Below the pieces are notes generated by a model, which worked only from the letters and a program-made list of their open reading frames with translations, was not told where the DNA came from and made no database searches. The position numbers were made by a program, and so were the translations under genes. A stretch of 64,000 nt of DNA from a virus. Of this stretch, positions 9,346 through 30,696 are shown in pieces. Within the stretch, counting starts at the first letter, position 1. Every line of letters starts with the position of its first letter. The stretch lies in IMG/VR virus record IMGVR_UViG_3300022902_000008; one strand, given 5' to 3'.

Positions 9346-9369
9346 GATTCCTCCCTTTCAACTGACAAC

Positions 9370-10762: not shown

Positions 10763-10852
10763 GGTTTCAGAGATTGACAGAAAGAGAGTTCTTTGACAAT
10801 AAGGGGGGAAAGAAAAAGAGACAAAAAAAATAAAATTAATTTCAAAAAGTGG

Positions 10853-10881
10853 TTAACAGAATGGTCAAAGTGTGTTATAGT
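10853..10881 (+). promoter_or_regulatory. Conserved phage promoter
   Basis: TTAACA-17-TATAGT, TGn; A-rich UP element. Confidence 0.85.
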
Positions 10882-11039
10882 GGTTTTGTTGATAACGGAG
10901 GCCGTCGCTCATTGATAATTTAAAAACGTTAATAATAAAACAAAGAAGGAGGGATATTTATTTTGATTGTTTAAAATTTTATTATAAAGACTTGACAGAC
11001 TTGGTATTAGCATTATATTAAACAGAAGGGAAACATTAG

Positions 11040-11066
11040 ATGAATAGAATTCGAGATCAGACTTAA
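11040..11066 (+). CDS. Candidate micropeptide MNRIRDQT
   Basis: SD GAAGGGA, ATG, RIRD-x-x-stop shared with two neighbours. Confidence 0.5.
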   Translation: MNRIRDQT

Positions 11067-11168
11067 AAGGTAAATTATATTTAAATTTAATTAGATGTTT
11101 GATTTGATTGTTAGTTGTTTGATAATAAAATATATAAATAATAATTTAAAATAAAAGGTTAAAACATA

Positions 11169-11201
11169 ATGATTAATAATAGAATTCGAGATGGCCCTTG
11201 A
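11169..11201 (+). CDS. Candidate micropeptide MINNRIRDGP
   Basis: AAAGG upstream, ATG, RIRD-x-P-stop. Confidence 0.5.
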   Translation: MINNRIRDGP

Positions 11202-11257
11202 CAATAAATAAACCGAAAGTTTGATTATATAAAATTTAGCATGGAGAAAATAAATTA

Positions 11258-11290
11258 ATGAGTAATATTAGAATTAGAGATGTGCCTTGA
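11258..11290 (+). CDS. Candidate micropeptide MSNIRIRDVP
   Basis: GGAG upstream, ATG, RIRD-x-P-stop; synonymous CGA>AGA change relative to the other copies. Confidence 0.5.
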   Translation: MSNIRIRDVP

Positions 11291-11339
11291 CAATAAAATA
11301 AAAGTTCTTGGTTGGCTGTAATAGTAAAGTGAGCATGTG

Positions 11340-11523
11340 TTCATGACACCAACAAGAAGATCCTCTATGTGTTGTTCATTGTTAATGTATTATTGTCACT
11401 GTTTTTCTGAAAATTTAGGGGAGTTTTTAGAAGTGACAAAAGTGATGTCAATAGCTTTCCTCCTTTCGTTATTGACATCTAGTTCTTATCAGGGGCCAAC
11501 GTTCATTGTTGGCCCTTTTTTTT
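11340..11523 (+). ncRNA. Candidate multi-hairpin RNA with an anti-SD loop
   Basis: Stems TTGTCACT/AGTGACAA (11393-11439) and GATGTCAATA/TATTGACATC (11444-11479, loop contains TTCCTCCTTT), followed by a terminator. Confidence 0.5.
11491..11523 (+). terminator. Rho-independent terminator
   Basis: GGGCCAAC-7nt-GTTGGCCC followed by T8. Confidence 0.9.
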
Positions 11524-11561
11524 ATAAGGGAGATAAAAATAAAATTAATCTTCAAAAATGG

Positions 11562-11590
11562 TTAACAAGCAGAGTTGTTTATGATATAGT
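11562..11590 (+). promoter_or_regulatory. Conserved phage promoter
   Basis: TTAACA-17-TATAGT, TGn. Confidence 0.85.
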
Positions 11591-11627
11591 GTGGTTATGT
11601 TCAGTTGATAACAACAAAAGGGAGGTC

Positions 11628-11777
11628 ATGATGATTGGAAAGGAAGTAAGGGCAATTGTGGGTTCTTCATTTACTTCTTATCGATCTGTGATGGTTGATC
11701 GTGCAACGAAGGGAAAGGTCAAACTAACCTTCCAGTATGTGAGTACGTTTGGCAAGGATAAAAGGGGAGAGGAATAA
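11628..11777 (+). CDS. Small hypothetical cassette gene
   Basis: SD GGGAGG before ATG 11628/11631; lies between two promoter repeats. Confidence 0.6.
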   Translation: MMIGKEVRAIVGSSFTSYRSVMVDRATKGKVKLTFQYVSTFGKDKRGEE

Positions 11778-11812: not shown

Positions 11813-11831
11813 AAGTTGTTTATGATATAGT
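11803..11831 (+). promoter_or_regulatory. Conserved phage promoter
   Basis: TTAACA-17-TATAGT, TGn. Confidence 0.85.
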
Positions 11832-11877
11832 GTGGTTATGTTCGGTTGCAGTTGACAACAACAAGAAGGAGAAACCG

Positions 11878-12150
11878 ATGGAAAGCATAACTGAGAAAGA
11901 GAGGAAAGTTCTTCAGGGTATTATTACTAATGATTTTCAGGATGCCGCAACTGGAACTGAGGCTGTGATTATGAATGATATTTGGGTTGATTGCCTGGAA
12001 GATTCCACAGGAGATATTCGGGGAAAAATTTTGTCTGGTGTGGTTTCTAGCCTTTCTAAAAAAGGCCTTGTCTGGACTGATGGGGAAGGTATCGCAATAA
12101 CTAAGGAGGGATGGACCGTTCTGAACTCAACGAATAGCGAAGAGGAATAA
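11878..12150 (+). CDS. Winged-helix DNA-binding protein
   Basis: ITEKERKVL...SGVVSSLSKKGLV...IAITKEG; SD AAGGAG. Confidence 0.7.
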   Translation: MESITEKERKVLQGIITNDFQDAATGTEAVIMNDIWVDCLEDSTGDIRGKILSGVVSSLSKKGLVWTDGEGIAITKEGWTVLNSTNSEEE

Positions 12151-15319: not shown

Positions 15320-15730
15320 ATGAAAAACAAATTTAAATCTATAGTAAAGAATATTATTAAAGAAGAGACTAGAAAGCTTATAAAGGAGGCTAGCTATAAA
15401 GATTTAACAGATGAAGAGAAAGACTTTTACAACACAACAAAAGGCCTTAATCGTGGTAAAGTTATTAAAGTTAACTTTCCCGCAACTACCATTAAAACTA
15501 AACTTGGCTGGGGATCAGGCACCACACCATCTATACCAGACATGTCTAACCTGTTAGATTTATATTGGAATAACGTTAAAGATGAGGTGCTTAATAGCAT
15601 ATTAAATTCATCTGAGTATTTAAATTATGAAGATCAACTTAAAGATATATCTAGAGAAGTAGGAGATAATGAAAGGTTCTGGGATTTTGTTAATAAGACT
15701 GGCCCTTGTCCTTCTGGCAATTGTGGCTAA
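15320..15730 (+). CDS. Hypothetical protein with KNIIKEE leader
   Basis: SD GGAGG; leader resembles those of 1261 and 2088. Confidence 0.75.
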   Translation: MKNKFKSIVKNIIKEETRKLIKEASYKDLTDEEKDFYNTTKGLNRGKVIKVNFPATTIKTKLGWGSGTTPSIPDMSNLLDLYWNNVKDEVLNSILNSSEYLNYEDQLKDISREVGDNERFWDFVNKTGPCPSGNCG

Positions 15731-15786: not shown

Positions 15787-15815
15787 TTAACAAATCAAGG
15801 TACTTATGGTATAGT
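15787..15815 (+). promoter_or_regulatory. Conserved phage promoter
   Basis: TTAACA-17-TATAGT, TGn. Confidence 0.85.
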
Positions 15816-15875
15816 ATGATTGCAAGTCAGGGATAAGTACTTGACAATAAAAGAAAGGGGGGGGAAAAAAAGAAA

Positions 15876-21993: not shown

Positions 21994-22048
21994 TTTTAAG
22001 AGAGTGTGGTGTAGGTGTTTTGGTGTTGATAACAAGGAGGTAGTTAAA

Positions 22049-26427: not shown

Positions 26428-26456
26428 TTAACAGATGTTGTTTAATATGTTATAGT
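26428..26456 (+). promoter_or_regulatory. Conserved phage promoter
   Basis: TTAACA-17-TATAGT, TGn. Confidence 0.8.
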
Positions 26457-26490
26457 GTCTTTGTTGACAATGAAGGAAGGGGGCTTTTTA

Positions 26491-27672
26491 ATGAAGATAT
26501 ATCAAGTAGGTGGTAGCATTAGAGATGAGGTTCTTGGTATAGAGGCCAAGGATTTTGATTATGTTGTAGTTGGCGCTACTGTTGCTGAGTTTAAGGATAA
26601 ATATCCTGAAGCTGAGTTGGTTGGTAAATCTTTTCCTGTTTTTATTGTTGATGGTGATGAATATGCTTTTGCAAGGATTGAAAGAAAGATTGGTGTTGGT
26701 CATTGTGGGTTTGATGTTGATTATGAACCTACTGTAACCATTGAAGAGGATTTGATGAGAAGGGATCTTACGATTAACGCAATTGCAAGAGATGTTGAAA
26801 CTGGCGAAGTGGTTTATGTTGATGGTGCTTATGAAGATATTAAAAGTGGTGTTCTTCGTCATGTATCTGATGCTTTTTGTGAAGACCCTTTGAGGGTTTA
26901 TAGGCTTGCAAGATTTGCTGCTAAGTTTCCTGAGTTTGTTGTTTGTGACAAAACCAAAAAGCTCTGCGAAGGCATGAAGCGTGAGCTTTCTCACCTCCCG
27001 ACTGAGCGTGTTTTTGCCGAACTTTGCAAGGCGCTTAATTGCGAAATGCCGAGTAGGTTTTTTACTGTCCTTGATGAATGTGGTGTGCTCGATGTTCATT
27101 TTAGTGAGATTGTTAAAATGAAAATTATCCCCGCAGGCCCAATTGAACACCATCCAGAGGGAGATCTTTTTAGTCATACTATGCAAGTGGTTGATGGTAC
27201 TGTTAAGGATAGTGTGGCTAGGTTTGGAGCTTTGGTTCATGATTTTGGTAAGCTTGTTACTGACTCTAATAATTATCCTTGCCATTACCGTCATGATAGC
27301 GAAGGTGTTTTTAGTAGTGTCGTTATGGCTTTTTGTGATAAGTTTAAGGTAGGTGTAGAATATTCTAGGATGGCAACGTTTTGTGCGAGGCATCATATGA
27401 GGGTTGGAAAGTTTTTTGAAATGAAGCCTGGGAAGCTTGTTTCTATGTTTGAGTATATGTCTAGGTTTGTTATTGATTCTGATAAGTTTTTGTCTGTTGT
27501 TAATGCTGACGGTCAGAATGTTTGTAAAAAAGCTTTTGATTGTTGCTTAAAAAGTGTTATGATGGTAAAGCTTCCGGTGGAATATCATGATCGTGGAACT
27601 AAGTGTAAAGATATTCTTATGAATCTTAGATGTCATAAACTTAACAATTGTAGGAATTTTTATAGTAAATAA
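26491..27672 (+). CDS. cca: Multifunctional CCA-adding tRNA nucleotidyltransferase with HD domain
   Basis: VGGSIRD, DFDY, EDLMRRDLTINAIA, EDPLRVYRLARF, HHPEGD, HDFGK. Confidence 0.92.
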   Translation: MKIYQVGGSIRDEVLGIEAKDFDYVVVGATVAEFKDKYPEAELVGKSFPVFIVDGDEYAFARIERKIGVGHCGFDVDYEPTVTIEEDLMRRDLTINAIARDVETGEVVYVDGAYEDIKSGVLRHVSDAFCEDPLRVYRLARFAAKFPEFVVCDKTKKLCEGMKRELSHLPTERVFAELCKALNCEMPSRFFTVLDECGVLDVHFSEIVKMKIIPAGPIEHHPEGDLFSHTMQVVDGTVKDSVARFGALVHDFGKLVTDSNNYPCHYRHDSEGVFSSVVMAFCDKFKVGVEYSRMATFCARHHMRVGKFFEMKPGKLVSMFEYMSRFVIDSDKFLSVVNADGQNVCKKAFDCCLKSVMMVKLPVEYHDRGTKCKDILMNLRCHKLNNCRNFYSK

Positions 27673-30339: not shown

Positions 30340-30696
30340 ATGAGTAAAGACAACAAAGAAGATAATATAGAACAAAAGCAACCTGATGTAGATGTTGATA
30401 TGCTATATAAGGGCTTAAAAGATGGTACAAATATAATTGTTGACAAAAAAGAGCATGAGTTTTTAATTAGCTATTTTGCCGATACTATTGATGTTATTGA
30501 AAAAATGGAAAAACATACAGATGAGGAAGATTCAGAAGAAGAGTGCGATTGTGAGGTTTGTCAGAGTGCTGATGTCTCTGACGATCCTTTCGTTTACATG
30601 TACTTCTCTGATAATTTAAATGGTATTTTTTATAATATGAAAATGCCTGTATCTATTACTGATCAACAAATTGATAAAATATTGGAGGAAGAATAA
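30340..30696 (+). CDS. Acidic hypothetical protein
   Basis: ORF. Confidence 0.65.
   Translation: MSKDNKEDNIEQKQPDVDVDMLYKGLKDGTNIIVDKKEHEFLISYFADTIDVIEKMEKHTDEEDSEEECDCEVCQSADVSDDPFVYMYFSDNLNGIFYNMKMPVSITDQQIDKILEEE

Follow-up and report, generated by a model that had tools for sequence, protein, structure and literature searches.

A Predicted Strand-Specific RNA Structure with an Anti-Shine–Dalgarno Loop Closes a Non-Coding Early Unit of a Large Uncultured Phage

The Source Phage and Its Gene Cassettes

The window, i.e., the whole 64-kb stretch of DNA that was analysed, corresponds to bases 12312–76311 of a 76-kb IMG/VR virus record with a CheckV completeness of 13%. It has a GC content of 30% and a strongly positive GC skew. 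Proteins encoded in the window include a MoxR-type ATPase, a VWA/DUF2201 protein, a PolyA_pol-family nucleotidyltransferase, an IMPDH/GMP-reductase-family protein and sugar-modifying enzymes, and therefore its source is a large uncultured phage. All ORFs of at least 120 aa starting to the right of 9335 were located on the + strand, except for those nested in longer + strand ORFs. Genes for tRNA or tmRNA were not found in the 64-kb window, and a tRNA-like reading of the locus was dropped; the PolyA_pol-family nucleotidyltransferase (CCA-adding or poly(A) type) is nevertheless encoded at 26455–27672.

The left part of the window is built of single-gene cassettes standing in a row, each after a common promoter module (GGTTAACA, a 17-nt spacer and a TG-extended TATAGT). 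One of these cassettes (11813–12140, promoter and gene) was exactly absent in two public assemblies, L004 and L016. The deletion falls between 45-bp repeats, and both assemblies retain the non-coding unit whose features are given in Table 1.

Table 1. Features of the non-coding early unit and the adjacent gene (positions in the 64-kb window).
Feature	Position	Strand	Description
Early promoter P1	10734..10762	+	TTAACA, 17-nt spacer, TG-extended TATAGT
Leader 1 (of P1)	10782–10823	+	carries GUUCUUUGACAAU and AAGGGGGGAAAG
Early promoter P2	10853..10881	+	119 bp after P1
Leader 2 (of P2)	10888–10917	+	reads GUUGAUAAC-GGAGG...GCUCAUUGAUAA
Promoter P3, sigma-70-type	10992..11019	+	TTGACA, 16-nt spacer, TATATT; 11/12 matches
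RIRD minigene 1	11040–11066	+	upstream of the hairpins, in the same unit
RIRD minigene 2	11169–11201	+	upstream of the hairpins, in the same unit
RIRD minigene 3	11258–11290	+	upstream of the hairpins, in the same unit
ORF of 146 codons	11337–11777	+	called as a gene of 110–144 aa in public assemblies
Hairpin A	11393–11439	+	8-bp lower stem, 5-nt bulge, 11-bp upper stem, apical loop AGGG
Hairpin B	11444–11479	+	12-bp stem: 10 perfect pairs, one G·U, closing C-G
Intrinsic terminator	11491–11517 (through 11523 with tail)	+	11-bp stem (6 GC pairs), 5-nt loop, U8
Next cassette's promoter	11562..11590	+	marks the end of the non-coding unit
Downstream small gene	11628..11777	+	48–49 aa; own SD AAGGGAGG at 11618–11625

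Organization of the Non-Coding Early Unit

The promoters P1–P3 lead into about 750 nt in which minigenes are the only ORFs. A promoter scan of the stretch from 11019 to hairpin A revealed no consensus-grade + strand promoter, only two 9/12 matches at 11099–11131. The nearest consensus-grade + strand promoter is P3, whose end (11019) lies about 370 nt upstream of hairpin A, and a discrete small RNA would consequently need processing. Judging by this arrangement, the hairpins and the terminator would be the 3′ end of a 500–755-nt RNA or a processed piece of it.

Leader 1 was homologous to a leader (15838–15875) that stands between the promoter at 15787 and a gene of 101 aa. Since there is no gene after P1, which runs directly into P2, the P1 cassette looks like one whose gene was lost.

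Apart from the RIRD minigenes, the unit contains even shorter reading frames. Two three-codon minigenes, each with a strong SD, were found upstream of them, namely GGAGG-N10-TTG ATA ATT TAA at 10897–10923 and AAGGAGGG-N9-TTG ATT GTT TAA at 10946–10975, the latter of the TTG ATT GVT type. Both are reminiscent of the bar minigenes of phage lambda. In RIRD minigenes 2 and 3, the stop codon overlaps a TTG (CCTTGACAATAA; 11199–11225 and 11287–11303), and these TTGs start further mini-ORFs encoding MTINKPKV and MTIK, respectively. The string TTGACAATAA also occurs at 10793 (leader 1) and at 15841 (leader of the 15787 promoter). By its letters, it may equally well be read as a −35 box, a boxA-like element or a restart site.

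Predicted Fold of the 3′ Part of the Unit

An earlier note, made from the letters of the window, had proposed a structured RNA at this locus, and the folding results bear this out. On the + strand, the 201-nt segment 11325–11525 has a predicted energy of −60.6 kcal/mol (z = −5.1), and none of the 200 shuffled sequences was as stable; the corresponding values for the minus strand were −44.5 kcal/mol and z = −3.6. The 131-nt core (11393–11523) ranked first in stability among 8,516 windows of 131 nt from both strands of the 64 kb. It has a GC content of only 37%, while the next non-overlapping stable windows have about 48%. A second stable window of low GC content, at 30526, turned out to be an ordinary coding sequence.

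The minimum-energy structure and the centroid both contain hairpin A, hairpin B and the terminator. The earlier list of consecutive hairpins was thus recovered for the long stem at 11393–11439 and for the stem at 11444–11479, which extends to 12 bp, while its first member, a CAACA/TGTTG hairpin at 11350–11374, was missing from the centroid. Six of the 42 pairs in the + strand structure are G·U, and for this reason each hairpin is 3–9 kcal/mol weaker on the minus strand. Hairpin A, with three G·U pairs, has −16.4 kcal/mol on the + strand versus −7.5 kcal/mol on the minus strand. Its AGGGGAG is split half and half between loop and stem, with P(unpaired) of 0.59. The loop of hairpin B (11456–11467) is a 12-nt all-pyrimidine sequence, UUUCCUCCUUUC, with CCUCC inside, and its P(unpaired) is 1.00 in transcripts starting at 11026 or later. 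The kissing of the two loops suggested earlier found no support, as their complementarity is statistically weak and comprises only 8 bp including G·U (−8.8 kcal/mol, p ~0.02–0.03).

The strong terminator reported downstream of the hairpins was confirmed. It is the strongest in the first 20 kb, where very few terminators occur, and its stem is followed by a U tract (eight T in the DNA) on the + strand only, as in canonical intrinsic terminators. It is separated by 11 nt from the two extra hairpins (about −16 and −13 kcal/mol), which exceed the needs of a terminator. According to the folding models, 11393–11523 is a real, exceptional and strand-specific RNA structure closing a non-coding early unit.

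The same stretch can also be viewed at the level of DNA. The two inverted repeats, each with a TTGACA/TGACAA-like box, would then be operators for a DNA-binding protein; TGACA-type boxes recur across 10776–11476, and the arms of hairpin B are similar to GTTGATAAC, the leader box found just after several early promoters. However, in a DNA cruciform the six G·U pairs would turn into mismatches, so that the repeats are imperfect, their arms are 12–14 bp apart, which is unusual for operators, and no promoter is located at the repeats to be controlled. We consider such operators highly improbable.

Coding Potential of the + Strand

The public assemblies assign a protein to this region, and the 146-codon ORF (11337–11777) was analysed accordingly. 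In a comparison with 5.8 billion proteins, the sole match was the identical ORF in this phage's own clones, and no match to Pfam or PHROG was obtained. The ORF crosses both the canonical terminator and the promoter module; this module recurs four times, and every copy is open in the same frame. Since it has no homologue and runs through a terminator and a promoter, the ORF is most likely an artefact, and 11628–11777 is probably its only real coding part.

The openness of the frame speaks for a real gene, either the whole ORF or a version of it from GTG 11433 or ATG 11445 behind AGGGGAG. Upstream of the 49-aa gene (11337–11627), 97 codons are open (p = 0.00025 by shuffling), and for the 66 codons outside the promoter module (11337–11534) the probability is 0.011, a minor anomaly; moreover, AGGGGAG stands 9 nt before GTG 11433. 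Against this, the composition of the product is odd, with five Cys among residues 11–22, and the true start has its own SD (Table 1). Together with the lack of homologues in the databases named above and the passage of the frame through the terminator and a promoter module that is open in each copy, this makes a + strand protein scarcely credible. A start at GTG 11433 or ATG 11445 would give a stop-less frame on the terminated RNA. The 110–144-aa “hypothetical protein” of the public assemblies is probably a mis-annotated non-coding RNA plus a promoter.

Relation to the RIRD Minigenes

The third RIRD minigene ends about 100 nt before hairpin A, and the earlier note had considered a switch coupled to translation of the RIRD peptides. 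This idea found no support. In transcripts from 11026, the hairpins are predicted to form without competition from the minigene region, no antiterminator pairing was seen by eye, and in three other phage lineages that carry related minigenes these are not accompanied by the module, so a conserved peptide–RNA switch is not supported. A leader-peptide attenuator or riboswitch was also rejected; the terminator and both hairpins were unchanged in folds of 131–500 nt, and the best upstream complement to the 5′ arm of the terminator was 6–7 bp by eye.

In the lineages with related minigenes, the sequence 3′ of them varies from one to another. In L089, MNRIRDQTN, MMARARDQP and MNRARDQP are followed by a protein gene; in L101, MNRIRDKTK and MSLVMIRAGPR come before a stretch of about 200 nt without structure (z = 0.16), behind which a terminator is located; and in L113/L115, which is a provirus, MRARDQP is placed ahead of tRNA-Ser and tRNA-Thr. 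A model search revealed nothing similar to the hairpin A/B module in these minigene loci.

Two of these loci show further features. In L115 (1400–1760; provirus record G003), GGAGGAAG precedes MRARDQP, and tRNA-Ser(GCU) and tRNA-Thr(AGU) follow about 100 nt farther downstream. Thus, the arrest-type minigene family heads tRNA genes as well. On the minus strand of L101, in the first 170 nt of the reverse strand, the minigene encoding MSLVMIRAGPR adjoins that encoding MNRIRDKTK; it carries the SecM-like motif IRAGP.

Hairpin B as an Antisense of the Leader–SD Module

The view of the locus as a structured, strand-specific, non-coding RNA with a fully exposed anti-SD loop before a strong terminator was upheld. 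The complementarity of the loop to SD regions is real and reaches past the loop into the leader box GUUGAUAAC. On the + strand, CCTCC occurs 12 times, versus 54 times for GGAGG. The box GTTGAYAAC is the neighbour of the SD in four promoter-proximal leaders (10888, 11604, 11851 and 20858) and also at 22025. The minus strand of hairpin B reads GTCAATAAC-GAAAGGAGGAAAG-cta-TTG, which is close to the leader–SD–start modules of the phage; real modules of this kind are GTTGATAAC-AAGGAGG...ATG at 22025 and GTTGTCAGTTGAAAGGGAGGAATCATG at 9360 (minus strand). Since the minus strand resembles early start modules, the + strand RNA would be an antisense copy of the leader–SD module. This is the new feature of the locus: by sequence comparison, the early leader-plus-Shine–Dalgarno module of the phage has its antisense in hairpin B.

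The loop 14-mer was examined at 118 sampled places in IMG/VR, and it formed part of a hairpin at none of them. It was the antisense of an SD before an ORF of at least 50 codons at 86 of them, and at none was it closed by more than 4 pairs. The motif is therefore normally just the back of a ribosome-binding site, whereas here it is built into a strong hairpin on the transcribed strand. The real start regions of the phage are unstructured (z from −0.6 to +1.9), in contrast to the minus strand of hairpin B (z = −4.5).

These comparisons bear on the main rival explanation, according to which the hairpins and the terminator form a passive 3′ end, which only stops transcription and protects the minigene RNA from 3′ exonucleases, and the loop is a leftover of an inverted leader–SD cassette. 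In keeping with this, neither conservation nor target specificity is demonstrable, the cassettes of the region are gained and lost by recombination (the deletion of 11813–12140 in two assemblies and the gene-less P1 relic), and the minus strand looks like a copy of the leader–SD–start module. On the other hand, the 12-bp perfect-type stem is unlike the real start regions, no other occurrence of the motif in the sample has a comparable stem, and a terminator does not need the two additional hairpins. We regard a passive end as unlikely, though it is the strongest of the competing explanations.

The resemblance of the minus strand to a start module can also be taken literally. In that case, AAAGGAGGAAAG would be the sequestered SD of a 28-codon TTG ORF (11451 down to 11365), which would belong to a type I pair or be the relic of an inverted gene. 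The likeness to the modules at 22025 and 9360 and the prevalence of SD antisense among the copies of the 14-mer in other phages fit this reading. However, neither the promoter scan nor inspection by eye revealed a minus-strand promoter to the right of the motif, the ORFs to the right of 9335 are biased to the + strand with a strongly positive GC skew, and the U tract of the terminator is present only on the + strand. The predicted peptide, MTSLLSLLKTPLNFQKNSDNNTLTMNNT, is polar after its first 8 residues, not membrane-like, and matches no family; in addition, the stems are less stable on the minus strand, and hairpin A, which lies inside the TTG ORF, is stable only on the + strand. Thus, the earlier suggestion of a minus-strand SD is retained as a resemblance to the leader–SD–start module, while its type I toxin–antitoxin reading is abandoned; a functional minus-strand element seems very unlikely to us.

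Returning to the pairing of hairpin B with SD regions, possible partners were ranked by a target scan of the + strand with a window of 45 nt, which corresponds to about 1,400 site positions without overlap. The best predicted partner was the start region at 22011, with 19 bp, a 2-nt bulge and −28.3 kcal/mol; the gene at 22011 is deaminase-like, and its product has HAE and PCxxC motifs. Leader 1 ranked 3rd, the start region of the next gene 9th and leader 2 22nd, and 4 of the 22 top sites were located within 1.2 kb (expected ~0.3). The duplex of leader 2 with hairpin B has −24.5 kcal/mol; not one of 2,000 shuffles gave so low an energy. Pairing with the loop is somewhat stronger for starts in the left 23 kb than for those farther along (p = 0.006, for a split made by coordinate only). 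The target energies form a continuum; in terms of net binding after unfolding, genes with the leader box were not separated from other SD genes, and no target class was singled out. The extended target GAAAGGAGGAAAG showed no enrichment.

Folding of longer transcripts suggests that the state of hairpin B depends on the promoter used. In the primary transcripts of P1 and P2, the leaders are predicted to open it; in that of P1, the loop (11455–11466) pairs with 10801–10812 at P ~0.99. In transcripts from P3 or shorter ones, hairpin B is predicted to be closed with its loop free.

Such pairing leaves room for a control of transcription in cis, in which hairpin B pairs with boxA-like elements of its own leaders, or the hairpins act on RNA polymerase in a put-like way, thereby setting the readthrough of the terminator into the early genes downstream, as a feedback or a timer. 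In Nus-factor antitermination leaders, boxA stands shortly after the promoter and is bound by NusB/S10. The boxA is UGCUCUUUAACA in E. coli and AUGAUCUUUGAAA in B. subtilis (PMC13753749). Similar strings, a likeness of sequence only, occur in leader 1 (GUUCUUUGACAA) and, behind a small hairpin, in leader 2 (GCUCAUUGAUAA). For the full-length transcripts, pairing with hairpin B is predicted for either leader; the hairpins are situated 11 nt before the terminator. However, predictions of pairing over more than 550 nt are unreliable, no antiterminator alternative was seen for the terminator stem, the downstream genes have their own promoters, and the boxA-like strings are open to other readings, as −35 boxes or TTG-started mini-ORFs. 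In our opinion, control in cis is improbable.

Search for Related Loci

The 16 public copies of the locus are clonal, being identical save for one SNP at 15443, outside the unit, and one neighbouring cassette deletion. As a consequence, the copies offer no covariation, and the invariance of the locus is uninformative. A blastn search of GenBank phages gave nothing, and the exact hairpin B pattern was found neither in IMG/VR nor in 185,579 genomes. The phage ATPase has its nearest non-clonal relative at 39% identity, and ATPase-based searching of IMG/VR yielded no loci. For the covariance model R1, the sole match in the window and in G000 was the locus itself, and six other phage records gave none.

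Several candidates obtained in other ways were rejected. The promoter motif had three matches in IMG/VR, all by chance. The relatives of a MORN-repeat-like (HRxDGPA-repeat) protein came from unrelated phages with 39–46% GC and contained no model match. A stem-CCTCC-stem pattern was found at 54 places in metagenomes, none of them fitting the model beyond the pattern itself.

Four related metagenome contigs (L127:8596–8700, L151, L152 and L169) have in common a 9-bp hairpin, GTCAATGGA...TCCATTGAC. It has an anti-SD-like loop (ATTCCTCCTTAA, with variants) and precedes an AAGGAGGAG-ATG start by about 55 nt. This hairpin, found via a pattern that imposes the motif, may be a cis-acting SD/anti-SD element.

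Proposed Role of the RNA

Starting from the observed structure, strand bias, terminator, absence of credible coding and complementarities, we suggest the following course of events. An untranslated early RNA of about 500–755 nt would be transcribed from P1, P2 or P3 and end at the terminator (11491–11523). Within it, hairpin B would hold open the 12-nt pyrimidine loop, and this loop, together with the 3′ arm of the hairpin, would serve as the antisense of the early start module, that is, of the leader box GUUGAUAAC and then of a GGAGG-type SD. In full length or after trimming to the 3′ part, the RNA would most likely base-pair with SD regions and reduce their translation. The candidate targets are the early messages of the phage, the two leaders of the RNA itself and, possibly, host messages. 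A general SD blocker would not spare the phage, whose own genes have strong SDs.

We infer that the RNA is made, that it pairs and that it has an effect; we give a probability of roughly 40% to the reading of 11393–11523 as an SD-pairing regulatory RNA module of the RsaE/RNAIII kind, probably lowering translation. A more ambitious version, which we think improbable, is that one early untranslated RNA takes over translation through ribosome-arresting minigenes in its 5′ part and the leader–SD antisense in its 3′ part, and that, with its accumulation, the early genes and its own leaders would be switched off with no repressor protein involved.

If the RNA is made and pairs as predicted, the early-gene translation of a large phage would be timed or limited by RNA only. 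If true, this would add a case, joined to arrest-type minigenes, to the small set of phage regulatory RNAs with known action.

Comparison with Known Systems

Membership in a known RNA family, for which a comparison with Rfam had been proposed, was not confirmed; there were no matches to Rfam 15 at the gathering score in the whole window. The best sub-threshold scores (bits/gathering) belonged to DapZ (RF02551, 26.6/56), VrrA (RF01456, 24.7/50) and MmgR/suhB (RF00519, 22.4/41). These RNAs share their general layout with the locus studied here, in which a stretch rich in pyrimidines precedes a terminator hairpin ending in a U tail. It is the terminator that carries the alignments, and the phage RNA is thus not a member of these families.

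In arrangement, the closest systems are C4 of phages P1/P7 and CI of phage P4, leader-derived phage antisense RNAs that are small, structured and situated within the untranslated leader of an early operon. Their loops are complementary to other sites on their own transcript. C4 and CI have a single immunity target, whereas the predicted targets here are SD/leader modules common to many early genes. Also unlike them, the putative RNA belongs to a large phage in which no lysogeny genes were noticed on casual inspection.

Non-coding RNAs have been reported in giant phages (PMC7318152, PMC8244752, PMC11512511). In mode of action, the closest analogues of the phage RNA would be RsaE/RoxS and the 3′ hairpins of RNAIII, SD-blocking sRNAs of Gram-positive bacteria with C-rich loops (PMC2790875). 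The property that defines this class, an unpaired C-rich hairpin loop complementary to the SD, is predicted for UUUCCUCCUUUC. A stable hairpin, an unpaired C/U-rich motif directed against GGAGG-type SDs, a Rho-independent terminator and the predicted occlusion of ribosome-binding sites are shared, with no similarity of sequence or covariance model. The phage-encoded, putative transcript differs from the RsaE/RNAIII type in that the module has no consensus-grade promoter of its own and would be the 3′ end of a longer RNA bearing minigenes. It also has a single loop, in which the full CCUCC is placed in a 12-nt pyrimidine tract, and its complementarity runs on into a phage-specific leader box.
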